Below are positions 6,161 through 16,000 of a DNA stretch of 64,000 bases, in pieces. Under the pieces are notes generated by a model. It was not told the origin of the DNA. It did not search any database and saw nothing but the letters and a program-made list of their open reading frames with translations. The stretch lies in assembly GCA_964489545.1 (NCBI GenBank), contig CAZAZE010000009.1:3035-67034 (forward strand), given 5' to 3'. Position numbers and translations under genes: made by a program. Each line of letters opens with the position of its first letter. The first letter of the stretch is position 1. The DNA is from an uncultured Bacteroidales bacterium. Its GTDB lineage: Bacteria; Bacteroidota; Bacteroidia; Bacteroidales; JAGOPY01.

Positions 6161-8044
6161 ATGAAAACATTGAGCATGATGCTGTTGGCGCTCGCCCTCG
6201 CGCCGGTACTTTTAATCACCGCCCAGGACGCGCAGTTCGTCAAACAAACCTTTTTCGCCGATAAGAATATCGTGTTCTCGGGAATGACCCGGGGCGCCGA
6301 TGGCGGTATCCTGGTCTGCACCTCCAAGGAAAGCTTCCCGGACGACTTCAGTGGCGTAGCCATCCGCCGCCTGGCGATCAACGGCGACGTGAAAGACAAA
6401 ACGGACCTGAGACTGGATATGGTGCATAACTTCGCCCTCACGCCCGATGGCGGCTTTATCGTGCTGTTCAACTACGATATGTTCAGCGACGCGAAAGGCG
6501 TCAGGCTCGACTTCAGCAACAGCAGCGAATACTATATGGCCGAACGGGATTATGAAAACATGCCGGGGGTGGTCAAAGTGTCGAAGTACGGCAGCCTGGA
6601 ATGGGTGCTGGAACTGAAACCGGCCCAGTACTTCAGCGACGGCGACGAAAGCGCCCTCTTCGTGCTGCCGGATAACCGCTGCTGGATCGTGTTCAACTAC
6701 TCCGCCGAAGATACCACCAGCGAATTCGGCGCCCAGGACGACTTTACGCGCGCCCTGATGATCGCCGCCAACGGGACGGTCCTCTTCGAGAAAGACTTCA
6801 TCGACAACGACCACGGCGTGCTGCGTGCCCCGGTGCTGCTGGAAGACGGCCGCCTGCTGCTGTTCTCCGACACCCGGCACGCCGGCGGCGGACAGGCGCT
6901 CATGACCCTCGACACGCAGGGCAACCTTGTGCAAATGGCCGCCATCCCCGGCCTGGAAGGGGTGTTCCCGAACGATATCGTCGCCGCGGGGAACTTTGGC
7001 TTCGCATTCACCCATCACGAGAACCAGGTGAATTATGTGACGCTGATCGACCGCGCCGGGAAGACCGCCTGGAAACTCCCGGCCACCGGGAACATCCACG
7101 CGATGACCGCGGACGAAAGCGCCCTCTATGCCGTCTCCACCGAAAAAAGCCTGTATGGTGTCGCCGAAGGGACGCCGGTACGCTATACCATCACCCGCTA
7201 TGACTACAGCGGCGCCGTGACCCCGGTGATGACCCTCACCGCCGACGGGCCGGTGGATCCGAAGAAATTGATCCGGACGGAATACAGCTTCGTGATGGCC
7301 GGCAACATCAAGCAGCCAGGCGCGCAAGGGGTGGCTGTCCTGGTCACCGTGCCGGAGACCAACGCCGACATCTTCCGCAATATGAACGCCTACGACTACC
7401 GGGAATATGCCAAAGCGGTCGAAAACAACGACCTGGAACGGATCCGGGCATTGGCCGCCTTCGGGATCGACCCGGACTTCAAAGCGGGCAGTGCCGGCGA
7501 CCGCGAAACGGAAGCCGACAACCCGCTGCTCGTGGCCTTCAAGCTGGGTAAGTACGACCTCGCAGAAGAGCTGCTGAAAAGCGGCGCCGACCCCGACGCA
7601 GTCGACAAAGTTCCGGTGCGCTACTTCATCTACGAACGGGCGGAGATCTACAACCTCCCGGTCACCCCGCTGATGTACATCGCCCTGACGCCCGGCTTTT
7701 ACGACGCACCCAAATATGTAGAGCTGCTGAACAAGTACAACGCCGATTTCAAGCGCATCACGCGCGACGGAACGGCATTCCGTCAGGCGTTCCAGATGCA
7801 GAACACGGAATTCATGGACCTCTACAGCCAGTACGTTACCTTCAGCACCGACGACCTGAATAACTTATTCGCCCCGGCGTACGAGTTCAACCTCCCTCAA
7901 TCCCTGAAATGGATCCTGGACCGCGGCGCCAACGCCAACAGCACCGATTTCATGGGCGACAGCTACCTGGAAAAGGGCATGCAGTCGGACAGCAAAGAGA
8001 TCAAGGCGGTGCTGAAAGAGTGGCAGAAAACGCACAAACATTAG
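6161..8044 (+). CDS. Secreted protein with C-terminal ankyrin-like repeats
   Basis: Signal peptide MKTLSMMLLALALAPVLLITAQD at the ATG at 6161. C-terminal repeats such as NPLLVAFKLGKYDLAEELLKSGADPDAV. The upstream part of the track ORF (from 5876) is translated repeat DNA. Confidence 0.7.
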   Translation: MKTLSMMLLALALAPVLLITAQDAQFVKQTFFADKNIVFSGMTRGADGGILVCTSKESFPDDFSGVAIRRLAINGDVKDKTDLRLDMVHNFALTPDGGFIVLFNYDMFSDAKGVRLDFSNSSEYYMAERDYENMPGVVKVSKYGSLEWVLELKPAQYFSDGDESALFVLPDNRCWIVFNYSAEDTTSEFGAQDDFTRALMIAANGTVLFEKDFIDNDHGVLRAPVLLEDGRLLLFSDTRHAGGGQALMTLDTQGNLVQMAAIPGLEGVFPNDIVAAGNFGFAFTHHENQVNYVTLIDRAGKTAWKLPATGNIHAMTADESALYAVSTEKSLYGVAEGTPVRYTITRYDYSGAVTPVMTLTADGPVDPKKLIRTEYSFVMAGNIKQPGAQGVAVLVTVPETNADIFRNMNAYDYREYAKAVENNDLERIRALAAFGIDPDFKAGSAGDRETEADNPLLVAFKLGKYDLAEELLKSGADPDAVDKVPVRYFIYERAEIYNLPVTPLMYIALTPGFYDAPKYVELLNKYNADFKRITRDGTAFRQAFQMQNTEFMDLYSQYVTFSTDDLNNLFAPAYEFNLPQSLKWILDRGANANSTDFMGDSYLEKGMQSDSKEIKAVLKEWQKTHKH

Positions 8045-8051
8045 AAATTTT

Positions 8052-8075
8052 GAGGTTTAAGGTTTAAGGTTTAAG
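8052..8075. repeat. Heptamer tandem array AGGTTTA x 3
   Basis: gaggtttaaggtttaaggtttaag. The same unit recurs at 31531-31555 and, degenerate, at 26630-26650. Confidence 0.7.
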
Positions 8076-8086
8076 TTGGGGCGGCA

Positions 8087-8153
8087 CCAGTTTCCAGTTC
8101 GCAGTTCCCAGTTCCCAGTTTGCCCGAACCTGGAACTCTGGAACCCTGGAACC
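8087..8153. repeat. Hairpin made of opposed heptamer arrays (CCCAGTT x ~4 versus CTGGAAC x ~3)
   Basis: ccagtttccagttcgcagttcccagttcccagttt gcccg aacctggaactctggaaccctggaacc, directly downstream of the stop at 8044. Confidence 0.65.
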
Positions 8154-8160
8154 AACAATA

Positions 8161-8233
8161 GCCACTAAAGCACAAAAGCACAAAAGGGCACTAAAGGCTT
8201 TGGTGCATTTTAGTGTTTTCGTGTTTTTGTGGC
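8161..8233. repeat. GCCAC...GTGGC composite hairpin element (copy B), direct-repeat partner of copy A
   Basis: gccactaaagcacaaaagcacaaaagggcactaaagg / ctttggtgcattttagtgttttcgtgtttttgtggc. It shares an identical 20-mer, ttttcgtgtttttgtggctg, with copy A. Confidence 0.75.
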
Positions 8234-8287
8234 TGGAATTCACCGCCGAGGCGCAGAGTCGCAGAGCCTGTTAGCCGTTTCCATTTT

Positions 8288-8463
8288 CTTACAGTCCTAC
8301 AGTCCTGCTGTCTTACAGTCTTACAGTCCTACAGTCTTACAGTCCTAAAGTCTTACAGTCTTACCGTCCTACAGTCTTACAGTCTTACCGTCTTACCGTC
8401 TTACTGTCTTACCGTCTTACCGTCCCCGCTCCCCCGCTTCCCCGCTCCCCCGCTTCCCCGCAT
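8288..8463. repeat. Octamer tandem array, about 22 units (CTTACAGT-type grading into CCCCGCTY-type)
   Basis: Read directly. The period of 8 nt is maintained over about 176 nt upstream of the NuoE-like gene. Confidence 0.85.
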
Positions 8464-8549
8464 CTTTAGACTCCCTCCAAATTAGCGCCGGGCCGCTGGG
8501 AAACGGGAAGAAATTTTATTTTTACCACGCCAAAAAACACGGCAATCCT

Positions 8550-9077
8550 ATGCGCATTGAACGATTCATCCCCGCGGTGGGAGCTGAGGCGCAGGAAGAA
8601 ATCGACCTTTCCCTTCTCGACCGCCTCATCGAAAAATACAAGCACAAAAAAGGCAACCTCATCCCGCTGCTGCAGGGCACGCAGAATATCTACGGATTCC
8701 TGCCGCGCGTGGCTTTTGAGAAGATCGCCGCCGAGACGGGCCTCAGCCTGTCGGACATGTATGGCGTGGCCACCTTCTACGCCCAGTTCCGCCTGAAACC
8801 GGTGGGCAAACACATCATCAAAGTATGCCACGGTACGGCCTGCCACGTGCAGAACGCCAACACCATCACCGACTCGCTCCAGGAGTCGCTGAAGATCAAG
8901 GACGGCGAAACGACCGAAGACAGCCTGTTCACGCTCGAGTCGGTGGCCTGCCTGGGCTGCTGCTCCCTGGCGCCGGTGATGATGATCGGCGAGCAGACCT
9001 ACGGCAAACTCACCGGCAGCGAAGCGGTCCGGATCGTGAAGAATATCCGGATGGAAGAAGTGAAACAGAATAACTAA
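8550..9077 (+). CDS. NuoE/HoxE/HydC-like thioredoxin-fold [2Fe-2S] subunit
   Basis: KVCHGTACHV...CLGCCSLAPVMMI cysteine pattern and overall NuoE-like sequence. Confidence 0.85.
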   Translation: MRIERFIPAVGAEAQEEIDLSLLDRLIEKYKHKKGNLIPLLQGTQNIYGFLPRVAFEKIAAETGLSLSDMYGVATFYAQFRLKPVGKHIIKVCHGTACHVQNANTITDSLQESLKIKDGETTEDSLFTLESVACLGCCSLAPVMMIGEQTYGKLTGSEAVRIVKNIRMEEVKQNN

Positions 9078-9119
9078 TGTTTACAACCTCTTCCATTGAA
9101 TGTGGAGATATGAAAAGTT

Positions 9120-9229
9120 TTAACCGCAAAGGCGCACAAAGGACAACACGAAGGCACACAAAGGTCGCCATCGCGCTTATCAACCCTTAGTGCGCCTTAG
9201 TGAAGTACTTCGTGCGCCTTAGTGGTTAA
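9120..9229. repeat. TTAACCGC...GTGGTTAA composite hairpin element between the NuoE-like and NuoF-like genes
   Basis: Left arm of CACAAAGG-type sub-repeats, right arm of CCTTAGTG-type sub-repeats. Confidence 0.7.
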
Positions 9230-9263
9230 ATAAAGATGATAAATATCTCCGGATTTTTGGAGG

Positions 9264-11060
9264 ATGGAAATAAAATATGCAATGCAAAAAACAAAAGTAA
9301 TCGTCGGGCTGGGCAGCTGCGGGGTCGCGGCGGGCGCCGGCAAGGTGTACGATAAAATCAGGGCCATCCGGGAGGTGGAGCACCTCGATTTCGAGCTGAA
9401 GAAGACCTCCTGCGTCGGCATGTGCTACCGCGAGCCGCTGGTGGAGATCATCGACGAAACCGGCTCCTACCTCTACGGCGAGATCACCGAAGACCGGGCG
9501 GTGGAGCTCATCGAGAAGCACGTCAATTTGCACGACCCGGTGCGCGACTACCTCATCCAGAGCGACCTGTTCGAGACGCCGGACCGCACCTTCCTCGAGG
9601 CGCAGGTGAAGATCGTGCTGCGCAACTGCGGCTACATCGACCCGGAGCACATCGAAGAGTACGAGGCGCGCAAAGGCTACGAAGCCATACGCAGGATCGC
9701 CTCGGAGCGGATCGCCCGCACTGAGGTCATCCAGACGGTACTGAATTCCGGCATCCGCGGACGCGGCGGCGGCGGCTTCCCCACCGGCCTGAAGTGGAAG
9801 TTCGCCAACGACAACAAGTCGGACGAAAAGTACATCATCTGCAACGCCGACGAAGGCGACCCGGGCGCGTTCATGGACCGCTCGGTGCTGGAAGGCGACC
9901 CGCACTCGGTCATCGAAGGGATGATCATCGCCGCCTACGCCATCGAGGCCACCGGCGGGGTGATCTACTGCCGCGCCGAGTACCCGCTGGCCATCAAGCG
10001 CCTCAACATCGCGCTCGACCAGGCCCGGGCCAAGGGATACCTGGGGCAAGCGATCCTCGGCATTCCGGACTTCAACTTCGACATCTACATCAAGGAAGGC
10101 GCCGGCGCTTTCGTCTGCGGCGAGGAAACGGCCCTCATCGCCTCGGTGGAAGGCGAGCGCGGCATGCCCCGCAAACGCCCGCCCTTCCCGGCCGCCAGCG
10201 GCCTGTGGCGCAAGCCCACCAACATCAACAACGTGGAAACCTTCGCCAACATCCCCTGGATCATCCTCAACGGCGCGGCCGAATACGCCAAATACGGCAC
10301 CGAGAAGAGCAAGGGCACCAAGGTGTTCGCCCTGGCCGGCAAGATCAAGCGCTCGGGCCTGGTGGAGGTGCCCATGGGCATCACCATCCGCGACATCATC
10401 TTCAAGCTCGGCGGCGGCATCCAGAAAGACCGCAAGTTCAAGGCCGTGCAGATGGGCGGCCCCTCGGGCGGCTGCATCCCGGAATACATGGCCGACACCA
10501 TCGTCGACTACGACAGCGTGAACGCCACCGGCGCCATCATGGGCTCCGGCGGGATGGTCGTCATGGACGAAGACACCTGCATGGTCGACGTGGCCAAGTT
10601 CTTCCTCGACTTCACCCAGAAGGAGAGCTGCGGCAAATGCACCTTCTGCCGCGTGGGCACCAAGCGCATGCTGGAGATCCTGCAGCGCATCACCGAAGGC
10701 AGGGGCGAGGACGGCGACATCGAGCGCCTCGAGGAGCTGGCCTACCAGATCAAGGACAACTCCCTGTGCGGACTGGGCCAGACGGCGCCCAACCCGGTGC
10801 TGACCACCATCCGCTACTTCCGCCACGAGTACGAGGCGCACATCCGCGACAAGAAATGCCCGGCCAAGGCATGCAAGCAACTGCTCACCTACGAGGTCAT
10901 CGCGGAAAACTGCACCGGCTGCACCGTCTGCGCCAAGAACTGCCCGGTCGACGCCATCACCGGCAACCGCAAGGAGGTGCATTTCATCCTGCAGGACGTC
11001 TGCATCAAGTGCGGCATGTGTTACACGAAATGTAAATTCGAAGCGATAAAACTATCATGA
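9264..11060 (+). CDS. NuoF/HydB-like NADH-binding FMN/[4Fe-4S] subunit with an N-terminal 2Fe-2S-like domain and a C-terminal 2x[4Fe-4S] ferredoxin domain
   Basis: GRGGGGFPTGLKWKF (FMN), ICNADEGDPGAFMDR (NADH), ESCGKCTFCRVG, and C-terminal CTGCTVCAKNCP / CIKCGMCYTKC. Confidence 0.9.
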   Translation: MEIKYAMQKTKVIVGLGSCGVAAGAGKVYDKIRAIREVEHLDFELKKTSCVGMCYREPLVEIIDETGSYLYGEITEDRAVELIEKHVNLHDPVRDYLIQSDLFETPDRTFLEAQVKIVLRNCGYIDPEHIEEYEARKGYEAIRRIASERIARTEVIQTVLNSGIRGRGGGGFPTGLKWKFANDNKSDEKYIICNADEGDPGAFMDRSVLEGDPHSVIEGMIIAAYAIEATGGVIYCRAEYPLAIKRLNIALDQARAKGYLGQAILGIPDFNFDIYIKEGAGAFVCGEETALIASVEGERGMPRKRPPFPAASGLWRKPTNINNVETFANIPWIILNGAAEYAKYGTEKSKGTKVFALAGKIKRSGLVEVPMGITIRDIIFKLGGGIQKDRKFKAVQMGGPSGGCIPEYMADTIVDYDSVNATGAIMGSGGMVVMDEDTCMVDVAKFFLDFTQKESCGKCTFCRVGTKRMLEILQRITEGRGEDGDIERLEELAYQIKDNSLCGLGQTAPNPVLTTIRYFRHEYEAHIRDKKCPAKACKQLLTYEVIAENCTGCTVCAKNCPVDAITGNRKEVHFILQDVCIKCGMCYTKCKFEAIKLS

Positions 11061-11078
11061 CCCTTTTCTTTATATTAT

Positions 11079-11173
11079 TTAACCACAAAGGCGCACAAAG
11101 GATTTCACAAAGGCGCACAAAGGAGGATCTTCGCAGTACCACCTTCGTGTTCCTTCGTGTTCTTTCGTGGTAA
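11079..11173. repeat. TTAACCAC...GTGGTAA composite hairpin element between the NuoF-like and fusion genes
   Basis: Four CACAAAGG units face three CCTTCGTG/CTTTCGTG units. Confidence 0.7.
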
Positions 11174-11208
11174 AAAAGAATTAAAGCAAAGCACCAAAAA
11201 GGATAAAT

Positions 11209-14200
11209 ATGAGCGAAAAAGTAAATATAATCTTAAACGGCAGCATCGTCGGCGGCATCAAAGGAGAAACCATCCTGGAACTGGCCAGGCGCCATGGGAT
11301 CGAGATCCCGACCCTGTGCAACGATCCGCGGCTGGAGCCCTATACCTCCTGCTACGTCTGCGTGGTCGAGGTCGAAGGCATGCGCGGGCTGCAGCCTTCC
11401 TGCTCCACGAAGATCTCCGAGGGGATGCGCATCGAGACCGACAACGGCAAGATCCGCCAGGCGCGCAAGACCGCGCTCGACCTGCTGGTGAGCAACCATT
11501 ACGCCGATTGTATCGGGCCCTGCAAGCAGACCTGCCCGGCAGGCGTGGATGTGCAGGGCTACATCAGCCTGATCGAGAAAGGGCAGTACCACGAGGCCGT
11601 CGGGCTCATCAAGGAGACCAACCCGCTGCCGGCCATCTGCGGCCGCGTGTGCGTGCGCCCCTGCGAGGTGGCCTGCCGCCGCAACCTGCTCGACGAAGGC
11701 GCCCCCGTGGGCATCGACTACCTGAAGCGCTTCGCTTCCGACATCGACCTCGAATCGCCCGGCAAATGGAAACCCGTCATCAAGCCTTCCACCGGCAAAA
11801 AGGTCGCCGTGATCGGCGCCGGGCCCGCCGGGCTGTCGTGCGGCTTCTTCCTCCAGAAGGAAGGACACCAGGTCGATATCTTCGAGGCCAGCCCGAAAGC
11901 GGGCGGATGGCTGCGCTATGGCATCCCCGAATACCGGCTTCCGAATGACTTACTTCAGAAAGAAGTTGATAATATAACCGAGATGGGTGTGCGGATTTTC
12001 TTCAATCAGAAGTTCGGGAAAGACATCAGTTATAAGGATATTCAACAGAATTACGACGCCATGATCCTGGGCATCGGGTCGCAGAAAGGCACCCTGATCG
12101 GTTGCGACGGAGAGGATGCGGAAGGCGTTTTTTCCGGAATTGATTTCCTTAAGAACATGGAAATCACCGGAGAACGTTTTGATTTCCGCGGAAAAAAGGT
12201 CGCCGTGATCGGCGGCGGGAACACCGCCATGGACTGCTGCAGGACTTCCATCCGCTGCGGCGCCGACAAAGTGTATGTCATTTACCGCCGTACCGAAAAA
12301 GAAATGCCGGCCAATCCGATCGAGATACATGAGTCGAAACTGGAAGGAGTAGATTACATGTTTCTGACCCTTCCGGTCAAGGTAGTGAAGAGTGAACGGG
12401 GAGCGGTGAAGAGTATTATTTGCCAGAAGATGGCTCTGGGCGAACCGGATGCATCCGGGCGGAGAAGGCCCGTTCCGGTGGAAGGATCGGAATTTGAGGT
12501 GGAAGTCGATTTCATCCTGGCCGCCATCGGGCAGAAGACCGTGCCGGATTTCCTGGAGGATATCAAAGCCAGTGCCGACAACGGGGAGGTGAAAGCCAAC
12601 CGCTGGGGCGACCTCGAAGCCGATCCGGATACGTTGCAGACCGGCATCCCGTCGGTGTTCGCCGCCGGCGACGGCGTGACCGGACCGGCCACGCTCATAC
12701 AGGCCATCGCCCAGGGAAGGAAAGCTGCTCATAGCTGCGACCTCTACCTGAAAGGATTGCCGGTGGTGCCGGAACAGGCCGAATTCTTCAGCAAAAAAGA
12801 CAATTTCAAACCCCAGGTCATGGCCGACTACAAAGGCTATTTCCCGGAGCAGAAGCGCGAGGAGATGCCGACCCTCGACCCGGAGAAGCGGATGAACTTC
12901 GACGAGGTGGAGCTGGGCTACGCCTCTGAGGCCGTGGCCTTCCACGAGACGCAGCGCTGCCTGGAATGCGGCTGCACGGCCCTGTTCACCTGCGACCTGA
13001 AGAAATACTGCACCGAATACGAAGCCGACCAGAAGAAGCTGGCCGGGGAATTTAAAGAGTACCACATCGATTTCCGCCATCCCTACATCGAGATCGACAA
13101 CAACAAATGCATCCTGTGCAGCCGTTGCGTCCGCATCTGCCGCGAGGTCGTGGGCGCCAACGCCCTGGGCCTGGTGAACCGAGGGTTCGAGACCTACGTC
13201 GCGCCCAGCATGGGCAACGCCCTGCAGGACACCTATTGCGAGTCGTGCGGGCTGTGCATCACCACCTGTCCTACGGGCGCCATCACCGAGAACGTGCCGT
13301 TCAAACCCGGCCCCGTCCGGCTGGAGCCGGCAGAGACCATCTGCAACTACTGCTCGGTGGGCTGCGCCATCTCCCTCAACCACAAAAACGGCTTCGTGAT
13401 GCAGGTCACCGGCGCAGAAGGCCATGTGAACCCCGACGGCAACCTTTGCCGCTATGCCAAGTTCGGATACCATTACCTGAACGACCGGCGGCGGATCACC
13501 GCGCCCATGATGAAGGTCAACGGGAAGTTCGAAACGGTTTCCTGGGAGAAGGCATATGATGTGATCGCGCAGAAAATATCGGCCGTAAGTCCCGATGAGA
13601 ACGCCTTCTTTGCCGGCGCACGGCTCACGAACGAGGAGCAGTACCTGGTGCAAAAGCTGGCCAGGGCCGGGGCGAAGACCAACAACGTGACCAGCTTCCA
13701 TTACATGGCCCGGGGCGCCGGATACCGCGGAGACGCGATTGCCGCCACGCCCTTCAGCCAGGTCAAAGACGCCGGGAAGATCTACCTGGTCGGGTCGGAG
13801 ATCAACAGCGACAATGCGGTTTTAGGATTTAGGATTTACAATGTACAATTTGCAAAGGGGATACCGGTTTCGCTGGTAACGGACAAAACGGACAGTTCCA
13901 TGGCGCACAAGGTCGATGAGTTGATGGTGATCAAATCGTACTACCATTTCATCAAGGCCGTGAACCACTACCTGGCCTCTGCCGGGCTGCACAACGGGCT
14001 GTTCATCAAGGACAATTGCACCGGGTATGAGGAATACAAGGCCGCGCTGCTGCAGGAAAGTTTCGCGGAGCTGGTCAAACTTGCCGGTGTTTCGGAGCTG
14101 GACGTGATCGATTTCGCGAAGCGCTACAACGAAGAGCAGAACGCCATCATCGTGTTTTCGGAGAAAGAGCTTTCGTCGAACGCCTGCACCGAGCTGTTCA

Positions 14201-14931
14201 ACCTGGCTTTGCTCACCGGCAAGCTGGGCAAGACCGCCAGCGGGCTGATCGCCCTGAAGGAGAAGAACAACAGCCAGGGGCTGCACGATATGGGCATCTG
14301 CCGGAATTATGGCCCCGGAGGGGTAGCGATTGAGCATGAAGATTTACGGTCGAAGATCTCAGATCTATGGAAGATGGATTCTTTCCCTGACATGGGCAGG
14401 CCGGCCATCATTGAAGGATTGGAAGCGGGATCGCTGAAAAACCTGTTCATCTTCGGCGAGGACCCGGCCGGATGCGCCGCCGACAAGGCCCGGGTTGAGC
14501 AATGGTTTGACAAAGCCGGGTTCATCGTGGTGCAGGATTATTTCATGACTGCCACCGCCGCCCTGGCCGACTTGATCCTGCCGGCCTCATTCCCGGTGGA
14601 AACCGGAGGCAGCTTCACCAATACCCAGAAAGTGATCCAGGAGTTCGGGGCGGTATTGAAGCCTAAGGTGGAAAGGGACAACCTGCGGCAACTCGCCGAT
14701 TTGCTTGGGGCGAAGGGCGTAGGGCAAAGTGGAGATCGCAGCGACGTGATGTCGGAGCTCATCACCCTGCTGCCGGAGGCAAAGGAAAGGACCTATTCGT
14801 TTGCCCCGACGGAAGGCGACAACCCGAACCGGATGTTCCGCCACGGCTGCGACGACATCGTCCGCCGTTTTGACGAAGAATTTGCACAGGCGTTTAACCA
14901 TGTAAAAGCAGGACATTATGAAAGAGTTTAA
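11209..14931 (+). CDS. Fusion oxidoreductase: 2Fe-2S ferredoxin + GltD-like NAD(P)H FAD oxidoreductase + NuoG/FdhA-like 4Fe-4S and molybdopterin-oxidoreductase-like domain
   Basis: N-terminus CNDPRLEPYTSCYVCVVEV. GltD signatures CPAGVDVQGYI, NPLPAICGRVCVRPCEVAC, KKVAVIGAGPAGLSCG and VAVIGGGNTAMDCCRT. Then CILCSRCVRIC, CESCGLCITTCP and ICNYCSVGCAISL (MopB Fe4S4). Confidence 0.85.
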   Translation: MSEKVNIILNGSIVGGIKGETILELARRHGIEIPTLCNDPRLEPYTSCYVCVVEVEGMRGLQPSCSTKISEGMRIETDNGKIRQARKTALDLLVSNHYADCIGPCKQTCPAGVDVQGYISLIEKGQYHEAVGLIKETNPLPAICGRVCVRPCEVACRRNLLDEGAPVGIDYLKRFASDIDLESPGKWKPVIKPSTGKKVAVIGAGPAGLSCGFFLQKEGHQVDIFEASPKAGGWLRYGIPEYRLPNDLLQKEVDNITEMGVRIFFNQKFGKDISYKDIQQNYDAMILGIGSQKGTLIGCDGEDAEGVFSGIDFLKNMEITGERFDFRGKKVAVIGGGNTAMDCCRTSIRCGADKVYVIYRRTEKEMPANPIEIHESKLEGVDYMFLTLPVKVVKSERGAVKSIICQKMALGEPDASGRRRPVPVEGSEFEVEVDFILAAIGQKTVPDFLEDIKASADNGEVKANRWGDLEADPDTLQTGIPSVFAAGDGVTGPATLIQAIAQGRKAAHSCDLYLKGLPVVPEQAEFFSKKDNFKPQVMADYKGYFPEQKREEMPTLDPEKRMNFDEVELGYASEAVAFHETQRCLECGCTALFTCDLKKYCTEYEADQKKLAGEFKEYHIDFRHPYIEIDNNKCILCSRCVRICREVVGANALGLVNRGFETYVAPSMGNALQDTYCESCGLCITTCPTGAITENVPFKPGPVRLEPAETICNYCSVGCAISLNHKNGFVMQVTGAEGHVNPDGNLCRYAKFGYHYLNDRRRITAPMMKVNGKFETVSWEKAYDVIAQKISAVSPDENAFFAGARLTNEEQYLVQKLARAGAKTNNVTSFHYMARGAGYRGDAIAATPFSQVKDAGKIYLVGSEINSDNAVLGFRIYNVQFAKGIPVSLVTDKTDSSMAHKVDELMVIKSYYHFIKAVNHYLASAGLHNGLFIKDNCTGYEEYKAALLQESFAELVKLAGVSELDVIDFAKRYNEEQNAIIVFSEKELSSNACTELFNLALLTGKLGKTASGLIALKEKNNSQGLHDMGICRNYGPGGVAIEHEDLRSKISDLWKMDSFPDMGRPAIIEGLEAGSLKNLFIFGEDPAGCAADKARVEQWFDKAGFIVVQDYFMTATAALADLILPASFPVETGGSFTNTQKVIQEFGAVLKPKVERDNLRQLADLLGAKGVGQSGDRSDVMSELITLLPEAKERTYSFAPTEGDNPNRMFRHGCDDIVRRFDEEFAQAFNHVKAGHYERV

Positions 14932-15373
14932 GGATACCGATTCCATTCTGCTGTTCGCGATCGAGCAGGAACAGAAAGCGGTCGATTTTTATACCGATCT
15001 GGCCCGTGAGGCCCATTCGGAGGAGATGAAGCGCGTCTTCATCGAGTTCGCCGGCGAGGAGATCAAACACAAGCAGCGGCTGACGAAGATCCGGGAAGAG
15101 GGCGTGTTCACCATGCCCATGGAGCGGGTCGCCGATCTGAAGATCAGCGATTACGTGGTCGAGGTGAAGGCCGGCGGCAAGCTCAGCTACGAAGAGGCGC
15201 TGGTGCTGGCCATGAAGCGGGAGAAGGCCGCTTTCCGGTTGTACAGCAGCCTGGCGGAACGCGCGCCGAGCCCGGAGGTGAGAGATATCTTCCTGGCCCT
15301 GGCCCTGGAAGAATCGCGGCATAAGCTGCGGTTCGAGGTGGAGTACGACGAGTACGTGCTGCGGGAGAACTGA
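14918..15373 (+). CDS. Rubrerythrin-like ferritin-fold diiron protein (no rubredoxin domain)
   Basis: LLFAIEQEQKAVDFY...FAGEEIKHKQ...LALALEESRHK E-x-x-H type motifs. The start overlaps the upstream stop by 14 nt. Confidence 0.7.
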   Translation: MKEFKDTDSILLFAIEQEQKAVDFYTDLAREAHSEEMKRVFIEFAGEEIKHKQRLTKIREEGVFTMPMERVADLKISDYVVEVKAGGKLSYEEALVLAMKREKAAFRLYSSLAERAPSPEVRDIFLALALEESRHKLRFEVEYDEYVLREN

Positions 15374-15375
15374 GG

Positions 15376-15457
15376 CATTTCGCATTGCGCAGTGTGGATT
15401 TCGCATTTCGCAGTATCATTGAGAAATGAGAAATTTGTATTGCGAAATGAGCAATAG
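15376..15457 (+). terminator. Imperfect hairpin of opposed heptamer units (ATTTCGC versus GAGAAAT/GCGAAAT) after the rubrerythrin-like gene; possible terminator
   Basis: catttcgcattgcgcagtgtggatttcgcatttcgcag ... gagaaatgagaaatttgtattgcgaaatgagcaat begins 3 nt after the stop codon. Confidence 0.4.
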
Positions 15458-15496
15458 TTCATTATCTTTGTATCGAACTATTGCTTATTTTATATT

Positions 15497-16000
15497 ATGT
15501 CTCCACGGTTAAAAACATTCAGAAAAGTTCTAAGTCCGCCGCCTGTTAAGGGTTTTAAGCCTTATGGCCATAATGGTGATGCCAGGAACACAGAGCCCGT
15601 AAACCTTTTATTTGAAGAATACGAAGCATTGCGGTTGTGCGATTATGACCGGTGCAACCATCAGCAGGCGTCGATGATCATGCGGGTTTCCCGGCCGACA
15701 TTTACCCGGATATATGCTTCGGCCTTGCAGAAGATCTCCGCGGCCTTTGTCGAGGGGAGGCAGATCAGCATTGAAGGAGGTAAGGTTTATTTTGACAGCG
15801 ATTGGTATCGGTGTTCCTCCTGCAGCTGTTATTTTAACCATCCGGATAAGACCATTGAAATGAAAAATTGCCCCCTTTGCGGCGACGGGAATGTCCTTCC
15901 CTTTGATCTGACTTCAGTCGATGAAATATCGGATGAGGGTCAATGTCAGGGACCTCAGCGCAGGCAGTACAGAGGAGGTAGGAGAATCAGGAAATCATGA
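15497..16000 (+). CDS. DUF134 (UPF0251) putative DNA-binding protein with a C-terminal CxxC...CxxC zinc ribbon
   Basis: FKPYG...LLFEEYEALRLCDYDRCNHQQASMIMRVSRPTFTRIYASALQKISAAFVEGRQISIEGG, then CSSCSC...CPLCG. Confidence 0.8.
   Translation: MSPRLKTFRKVLSPPPVKGFKPYGHNGDARNTEPVNLLFEEYEALRLCDYDRCNHQQASMIMRVSRPTFTRIYASALQKISAAFVEGRQISIEGGKVYFDSDWYRCSSCSCYFNHPDKTIEMKNCPLCGDGNVLPFDLTSVDEISDEGQCQGPQRRQYRGGRRIRKS

Follow-up and report, generated by a model that had tools for sequence, protein, structure and literature searches.

A probable NfnABC/StnABC-type electron-bifurcating operon from Bacteroidales with an accessory di-iron protein

Biochemistry and structures are available for three complexes of the Nfn-Bfu family, whose members link NADH (reduced nicotinamide adenine dinucleotide), NADPH (its phosphorylated form) and ferredoxin by electron bifurcation: StnABC of the Negativicutes acetogen Sporomusa ovata (8OH5/8OH9; Kremp 2020, PMC7483475; Kumar 2023, PMC10482914), NfnABC of the thermophilic Firmicute Caldicellulosiruptor saccharolyticus (Csac; 9BOV/9BP5; Li et al. 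2025, PMC11829005) and an archaeal Nfn-Bfu enzyme (9N5U, PMC12018979), a form also described for Thermococcus sibiricus (Schut 2022, PMC9304861). Bacteroidetes were already listed by Schut et al. 2022 (PMC9304861) among the phyla carrying Nfn-type BfuB. Here we analyzed a 64,000-nucleotide (nt) stretch of contig CAZAZE010000009.1 from an uncultured Bacteroidales bacterium (assembly GCA_964489545.1), referred to as the window, which contains a four-gene operon at 8550-15373. Judged by sequence, its first three genes very probably encode an NfnABC/StnABC (Nfn-Bfu, Type 1 BfuABC) electron-bifurcating NADH/ferredoxin/NADPH enzyme, and in this respect the operon is an unexceptional Bacteroidales representative of the solved family. 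The fourth gene encodes a di-iron protein that is a putative lineage-specific accessory and the operon's only unreported and unexplained feature. The genes are as follows, with protein lengths in amino acids (aa):

8550..9077, plus strand: nfnC/stnA (BfuC), NuoE-like, 175 aa (Pfam/NCBIfam, PDB sequence search)
9264..11060, plus strand: nfnB/stnB (BfuB), HydB-type NuoF-like, 598 aa (PDB matches, motif alignments)
11209..14931, plus strand: nfnA/stnC (Nfn-type BfuA), fusion protein, 1240 aa (Pfam/NCBIfam, PDB matches)
14918..15373, plus strand: rubredoxin-less ferritin-like (erythrin/COG1633-type) di-iron protein, 151 aa (Pfam PF02915)

An original prediction, made from the letters of the window, had proposed a four-gene operon encoding a Bfu/Nfn-type NADH/NADPH/ferredoxin oxidoreductase. 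The open reading frames lie exactly at the predicted positions, Pfam and NCBIfam confirm their domains, and the enzyme assignment is supported by these domains, by PDB matches and by ligand conservation. For each of the large-gene products, the three solved Nfn-Bfu complexes take the first three places among the PDB matches, above every hydrogenase, formate dehydrogenase and complex I subunit. The gene order is that of the S. ovata locus (nuoE-like, nuoF-like, GltD/NuoG fusion), although the host here is a Bacteroidales fermenter; the stn genes have metVF upstream and pabAB downstream and no di-iron gene, whereas the window spacers carry hairpin elements.

The 175-aa protein contains a 2Fe-2S_thioredx (NuoE) domain (PF01257, E 3e-50, Pfam), and its top PDB matches are 9bov_C (3.6e-55), 9n5u_C and 8oh5_A, with HydC ranking below. 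Cysteines 93, 98, 134, 137 and 138 mark the gating [2Fe-2S] cluster C1, and the BfuC feature of a [2Fe-2S] C1 in a thioredoxin-like C-terminal domain is present (C93, C98, C134, C138). The 598-aa protein combines Complex1_51K, SLBB and NADH_4Fe-4S domains with an N-terminal thioredoxin-like remnant and a C-terminal 2x[4Fe-4S] region (Pfam/NCBIfam). It matches 8oh5_B (8.8e-258), 9n5u_B (1.1e-256) and 9bov_B (5.6e-251), whereas hydrogenase HydB chains score 5e-225 or weaker. Its predicted sites comprise the cluster B1 ligands (C456, C459, C462, C502), the B2 Zn-type site of three Cys and one His (H526, C532, C537 region), the ferredoxin-binding clusters B3/B4 at the C-terminus (C550-C590) and the B5 site (C19, C50, C54, E57). 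A HydB-type NuoF with extra N-terminal 2Fe-2S and C-terminal 2x[4Fe-4S] domains had been anticipated and was found, the N-terminal part being the thioredoxin-like remnant that carries B5. The alignment proposed along with that claim, against 8oh5_B, 9n5u_B and 9bov_B, shows every BfuB motif conserved: the flavin mononucleotide (FMN)/NAD(H) site and B1, B2, B3, B4 and B5. The true start of nfnB may be M7 (9282).

The 1240-aa protein has the domain order Fer2_4, Fer4_20 and Pyr_redox_2 (GltD), Fer4_Nqo3, Molybdop_Fe4S4 and Molybdopterin (Pfam/NCBIfam), with the following elements, among them the flavin adenine dinucleotide (FAD) module:

11215-11445, plus strand: 2Fe-2S domain of nfnA
11515-12753, plus strand: GltD-like FAD/NADPH module of nfnA with two [4Fe-4S]
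11725-11727, plus strand: K173 of nfnA
11935-11937, plus strand: R243 of nfnA
12958-12993, plus strand: CxxCxC..C cluster of nfnA
13081-13287, plus strand: 2x[4Fe-4S] of nfnA
13333-13482, plus strand: MopB Fe4S4 domain of nfnA
13492 to the gene end, plus strand: cofactor-less Fdh-like domain of nfnA
13708..13713, plus strand: vestigial Mo/W active-site position, Ala834-Arg835 in place of the Cys/Sec-His dyad (FdhF alignments)
14257-14259, plus strand: Lys1017, equivalent of FdhH Arg333 (FdhF alignments)

Its PDB matches are 9bov_A (1178 aa, 2.2e-248), 8oh5_C (StnC, 1172 aa, 7.3e-242) and 9n5u_A (8.5e-200). Alignments of the subunits to the solved enzymes are full-length. The window protein and 12 Bacteroidales orthologues, one of them cut at its N-terminus, make up a set of 13 sequences in which, wherever the residue is covered, there is no substitution at any of the 28 ligand cysteines (four for the 2Fe-2S cluster, 24 for the six [4Fe-4S] clusters), at K173 or at R243. 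K173 aligns with K170 of both StnC and Csac NfnA, the strictly conserved lysine that ligates the cluster next to the FAD, and R243 corresponds to StnC R239, with the YRR motif of the NADPH Rossmann fold kept. Domain scans and active-site alignments thus agree with the earlier view of a third subunit in which a GltD-like NADPH/FAD module replaces a catalytic metal site.

The same prediction held that the fusion of these modules sets the system apart, and this did not stand. StnC, at 1172 aa, already joins GltD, NuoG and an inactive FdhF-like part (PMC10482914), and the 1178-aa chain of Csac NfnA aligns from residue 13 to about residue 1191 of the window protein. Since both share the fused architecture, fusion is the family's normal form rather than a novelty. 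Like the window protein, StnC carries one 2Fe-2S and six 4Fe-4S clusters and ends in an inactive FdhF-like domain; it differs in that its C114 is Val in the window protein, whose Fdh-like domain is about 40 aa longer and nearer real FdhF in sequence. Csac NfnABC, the best PDB match of both the large and the NuoE-like subunit, shares clusters A1-A7, A7 being held by three Cys and one Lys, together with the 3Cys+Glu motif at B5. The archaeal enzymes have the same BfuBC core and the same GltD insertion in BfuA, but the archaeal NfnA chain is about 280 aa shorter than the window protein (963 vs 1240 aa), with one 4Fe-4S cluster fewer and little left of the Fdh-like domain, whereas the window protein has the full bacterial form; relative to S. 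ovata StnC, the archaeal subunit was given as about 200 residues shorter (Schut 2022, PMC9304861).

More distant systems share single parts of this design. HydABC [FeFe] hydrogenases (T. maritima, A. woodii, T. kivui) have a HydBC/BfuBC bifurcating core homologous to the window NuoEF pair, and the HydB of the same genome is 53-55% identical to the window NuoF-like protein; in contrast to HydABC, the window system has no H-cluster domain and its third substrate would be NADP(H), bound through the GltD module. Geobacter SfrAB, like the window fusion, unites a GltD-like NADPH part and an FdhA-like part devoid of cofactor. SfrAB is, however, a two-subunit enzyme with its modules on separate chains, and is not known to have a NuoE/NuoF bifurcating core. 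Canonical NfnAB/NfnSL, built from a PyrK-like NfnA(S) and a GltD-like NfnB(L) around a bifurcating FAD without a NuoEF core, is not matched, the window GltD being embedded in BfuA.

By homology to the solved enzymes, NADP(H) would react at the FAD of the GltD-like module in the 1240-aa subunit. Single electrons would then pass through the Lys-ligated [4Fe-4S] cluster (3 Cys + K173) and the chain of Fe-S clusters beyond it until they reach the FMN in the NuoF-like subunit, where a B1-FMN-C1 flavobicluster would split or merge electron pairs. The high-potential pair is predicted to go to or come from NAD(H) at the FMN, and low-potential electrons would travel over the mobile NuoE [2Fe-2S] cluster and the C-terminal B3/B4 clusters to ferredoxin (model after PMC11829005). 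The Fdh-like C-terminal domain, lacking a Mo/W site, would serve as a structural and tetramerisation module with a dead-end two-cluster branch, as in StnC.

The gene content of the assembly (3.94 Mb, 97.9% complete) bears on the physiological role. A search of this genome found no second GltD-like gene, which leaves it without canonical NfnAB and without a glutamate synthase (GOGAT) small subunit; nfnABC is thus probably its sole NADPH-linked transhydrogenase and alone in connecting the pools of NADH, ferredoxin and NADPH. The absence of membrane Nuo subunits and of a hydrogenase H-cluster domain, part of the original prediction, was borne out for the operon neighborhood by the open reading frame list and domain scans. 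Hydrogenases sit on other contigs, with a bifurcating [FeFe] HydABC on contig C15 (46321-52651; HydC 160 aa, HydB 647 aa, HydA 575 aa) and a Hox-type soluble [NiFe] hydrogenase on contig C13 (26469-33589). HydABC, Hox and two genes for glutamate dehydrogenase are present in this anaerobic genome and a further GltD-like gene is not, so the likeliest role of the enzyme is to form NADPH for biosynthesis from NADH and reduced ferredoxin. Beside HydABC on C15 lie a 659-aa HydS-like protein, with an H-cluster-like domain and a histidine kinase, and then response regulators; the Hox cluster comprises a fused NuoE/F-like protein (600 aa), a HoxU-like protein (233 aa), small and large subunits, a maturation protease and HypF.

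The 151-aa product of the fourth gene belongs to the Rubrerythrin family (PF02915, 9.8e-16, Pfam). It has zero cysteines, hence no rubredoxin domain, and is not a classical rubrerythrin; in NCBIfam it scores 22 for RuberyRbr, where the cut-off is 200. The proposal of a rubrerythrin-like gene overlapping the 3' end of the operon accordingly survives in its family and in the 14-nt overlap, but not as a classical rubrerythrin with a rubredoxin domain. Di-iron ligands in the order E, ExxH, E, ExxH (E18, E48, H51, E102, E132, H135) are all invariant between the window protein and nine orthologues, and again in an alignment of the window protein with 21 homologues. Because a PDB sequence search returned marginal matches only (E 0.002 or worse), a fold search was needed: the AlphaFold2 model is a four-helix bundle (predicted local distance difference test, pLDDT, 86.9; predicted template modeling score, pTM, 0.82), and its closest structural match is TM1526 (1vjx), an uncharacterised ferritin-like di-iron protein, with a template modeling (TM) score of 0.74. 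Several described systems resemble it in being genetically tied to a GltD-type flavoprotein or in being four-helix proteins without rubredoxin, with weak sequence similarity: TM1526; ferriperoxin with FNR, ferriperoxin being an Rbr-like peroxidase that has no rubredoxin domain and takes its electrons from an NADPH flavoprotein (PMC3317640); the rbr-perR-rbo-gltD locus of C. difficile (bioRxiv 2024.09.17.613384); and the BfuBC-rubrerythrin 'Rub-Bfu' enzymes predicted by Schut et al. 2022 (PMC9304861). Unlike in these systems, the partner of the window protein would be the BfuA of a complete NfnABC.

The distribution of this gene, single-copy in its own genome, follows that of nfnA. An even sample of 201 genomes of the same order includes 77 with full-length nfnA, which makes Nfn-Bfu common in the order, and 65 with a strong homologue of the 151-aa protein; 60 genomes have both, five only the di-iron gene, 17 only nfnA and 119 neither one (Fisher p 2e-29, phylogeny not corrected for). 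In 32 of the 60 genomes with both, the di-iron gene lies directly downstream of nfnA on the same strand, at a gap of -10 to +709 nt. A phylum-wide even sample was too coarse (0 of 300 genomes with the di-iron protein), and the order-level search was the informative one. Fusions add a further element. One genome (G395; locus L019:3259-6047) has an NfnS/PyrK-like gene followed by a 650-aa GltD::rubrerythrin-like fusion, and another (G392; L030:952-5522) encodes a 757-aa rubrerythrin-like::2x4Fe4S::Molybdop_Fe4S4::Molybdopterin protein, 49% identical to residues 608-1229 of the 1240-aa protein. The latter belongs to a paralogous split cluster: it is flanked by a GltD-like gene (605 aa) and a stand-alone di-iron homologue, with a complete nfnA adjoining. 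Both fused copies retain all six di-iron ligands.

On this genomic context alone (co-occurrence, adjacency and fusions), the di-iron protein may be a redox partner reduced by the GltD/Fe-S module of NfnA and a scavenger of peroxide or oxygen, a proposal that we place at slightly under even chances. Rosetta-stone fusions of this kind join the di-iron protein to exactly the GltD and Fdh-like modules, and so argue for a physical link to those two. A fuller version, tentative and rather to be doubted than believed, is that in this order of Bacteroidota NfnABC gained a fourth component of its own. The di-iron protein would then bind to the large subunit and be reduced by the Fe-S chain there, perhaps by way of the dead-end two-cluster Fdh-like branch, giving the transhydrogenase a built-in NAD(P)H/ferredoxin-driven peroxidase/oxidase or a means of self-protection. 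If the di-iron protein does draw NfnA electrons, the cluster branch left unexplained as a 'dead end' by the structural papers would have a function, and the operon would be an example of a rubrerythrin-Bfu link so far only predicted. The co-occurrence and fusion data are the new element here, and the di-iron accessory is the one feature deserving experiment. For annotation, entries now reading 'NADH-quinone oxidoreductase E/F', 'glutamate synthase small subunit-like' and 'ferritin family protein' would become a defined enzyme. As a separate observation, a genome without nfnA (G394; L033:1929-5343) has the di-iron gene after one for a 592-aa Fer4::GltD protein, before which comes in turn a 380-aa gene of NuoD/[NiFe]-large-subunit-like type; this may be another GltD-based redox module.

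How the large subunit and its neighbor are read depends first on the Fdh-like domain, which could in principle mean that the 1240-aa subunit works as a genuine NAD(P)-linked formate dehydrogenase of the Fdh-Bfu type to which a GltD module has been added. The piece covering residues 708-1240 (533 residues, of which 3-483 align) scores 201.9 bits against the FdhF chain 7qv7_S, above its scores against the inactive domains of StnC (159 bits) and Csac NfnA (128 bits), and several pterin-contact motifs, such as QDxF..TA..AD..LPA and GxFTNT, are kept; for the latter reason the remnant looks, from its sequence, less decayed than in the characterised enzymes. In alignments with FdhF chains 7qv7_S, 9t1s_L (Sec shown as X) and 7bkb_D, however, the Cys/Sec-His dyad of real FdhF (ARLCH, ARLXH) falls on MARG, so that Ala834 and Arg835 stand for Cys/Sec and His, and the Arg of LRGQNN (Arg333 of FdhH) is K1017. 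Over the 13 sequences the Mo/W ligand position holds A, N, K or G, in no case Cys, and the MG(V/I)TQ motif is lost. Pfam does not detect Molydop_binding (PF01568, domain IV) in the protein, which ends about 200 residues before a complete MopB enzyme would. With the Mo ligand, the His and the catalytic Arg replaced and domain IV missing, the formate dehydrogenase reading is ruled out and we give it next to no credence; the cofactor-less FdhA-like remnant of the original prediction stands, neither the Mo/W ligands nor a catalytic Cys/Sec having been retained. It is also very improbable that the enzyme works without bifurcation, as an NAD(P)H:ferredoxin or NADH:NADP+ oxidoreductase, or that it serves another enzyme, such as a glutamate synthase or hydrogenase encoded elsewhere, as a module. 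GltD-like and NuoEF-like modules are common in non-bifurcating enzymes, but the BfuB additions (the N-terminal thioredoxin-like site, the Zn-type site and the C-terminal 2x[4Fe-4S]) are all present and closely match the characterised bifurcating enzymes; no gltB-like or catalytic hydrogenase gene adjoins, and HydABC and Hox have NuoEF-like subunits of their own on their contigs.

A third alternative turns the weight towards the fourth gene: the complex would primarily be a peroxide/oxygen detoxifier, in which the Bfu core and GltD feed the di-iron protein as terminal reductase, like a 'Rub-Bfu' with BfuA kept. The overlap with nfnA and the co-occurrence, the fusions to GltD or Fdh-like modules in other genomes, the unlinked di-iron genes adjoining flavodiiron-protein genes, and the parallels with the Schut 2022 prediction, ferriperoxin and the C. 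difficile locus all point this way. Yet the 17 nfnA genomes lacking the di-iron gene, the S. ovata stn locus that lacks it while its three-subunit enzyme is a complete transhydrogenase, and the lack of any other transhydrogenase candidate in the genome make a primary detoxifier very unlikely. In 28 of the 60 genomes with both genes, moreover, the di-iron gene lies elsewhere than nfnA. The last point also tells against the NfnABC enzyme with a di-iron redox partner that we prefer, and with it stand several others. Unlinked copies follow a flavodiiron-protein gene in three genomes and lie beside an NADP-type glutamate dehydrogenase in four, and an anaerobic way of life common to these genomes, instead of a physical association, could account for part of the co-occurrence. 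Either Zn or a [2Fe-2S] cluster may occupy the B5 site (3 Cys + Glu), as the solved bacterial enzymes differ, with Zn in Csac and 2Fe-2S as modeled in S. ovata. The direction of the reaction in vivo is read from gene content only, and the two strong hairpins in the internal spacers, described below, could attenuate or process the transcript.

As for the operon itself, all four genes are co-oriented, and the order nuoE-nuoF-fusion is kept in every locus fetched from Bacteroidales/Marinilabiliales genomes and metagenomes whose contig reaches far enough (L001-L012, L016-L018); several loci are cut by contig ends, and order was judged only where the contig covers it. Such conservation indicates that the arrangement is not due to chance. 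Spacers in the nfn operons of relatives measure 24-80 nt, whereas those in the window measure 186 nt (9078-9263) and 148 nt (11061-11208), because each contains a strong hairpin. Operon status is predicted from the kept gene order, from the short spacers that relatives have and from the 14 nt by which nfnA and the di-iron gene overlap. In several relatives, a separate GltD-like gene lies a few hundred nt upstream of nfnC (L001:2060-3331, L003:1963-3255, L010:2101-3408, L012:1871-3142), its product being 37-40% identical to residues 88-516 of the 1240-aa protein; in the window this place is taken by an ankyrin-repeat gene and by repeat arrays. The candidate regulatory and repeat elements are:

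8517..8524, plus strand: candidate -7 promoter box of the Bacteroidota type, TATTTTTA, 26 nt ahead of the first start codon (relaxed TAnnTTTG match in a motif scan; weak)
9119..9230, plus strand: hairpin element of about 112 nt, TTAACC...GGTTAA, with arms of CACAAAGG-like units, in the nfnC-nfnB spacer (RNA fold -52.2 kcal/mol, z -5.8)
11082..11171, plus strand: second hairpin of the same family, in the nfnB-nfnA spacer (RNA fold -35.1 kcal/mol, z -3.3)
15444..15496, plus strand: AU-rich terminator-like hairpin followed by UUAUUUUAUAUU (123-nt region, -45.2 kcal/mol, z -5.5)

The promoter box is the sole relaxed TAnnTTTG match in 8045-8549, and neither internal spacer has one; a sigma-70 promoter and terminator scan of 8000-15700 was uninformative, with counts at or below shuffle expectation. 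Neither spacer hairpin is followed by a U-tract, which rules both out as intrinsic terminators in the sense direction. They belong to a dispersed family of about 100 nt that begins TTAACC(A/G)CAAAGG and has arms of tandem units of the same type, with further copies in the genome at C3:206009, C5:155637, C11:56159 and C44:11358. In a congeneric genome (G391), the second spacer is 24 nt and contains no hairpin. Copies scattered over the genome, together with this hairpin-free spacer, mark the hairpins as inserted repeat elements rather than ancestral parts of the operon, and suggest that the second was recently inserted. Downstream of the di-iron gene, a further hairpin at about 15389-15443 precedes the terminator-like one, which is likely the 3' end of the transcription unit; the next operon begins at 15497.

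Upstream of the operon, an octamer array at 8288-8463 starts as CTTACAGT, drifts to CTTACCGT and continues as CCCCGCTT. The array is not unique: similar ones occur at C1:506356, C2:79746, C5:125876 and C8:13082, and the 17-mer CTTACAGTCTTACAGTC is found 30 times at several genome loci. In another genome of the set (G324; L024:1461-4706), a leucyl-tRNA synthetase gene (1081 aa) seems, by eye, to carry a DUF559/Vsr-like endonuclease-type insert in the middle of the enzyme (…VDFVCLVKKVIIEVDGEIH…).

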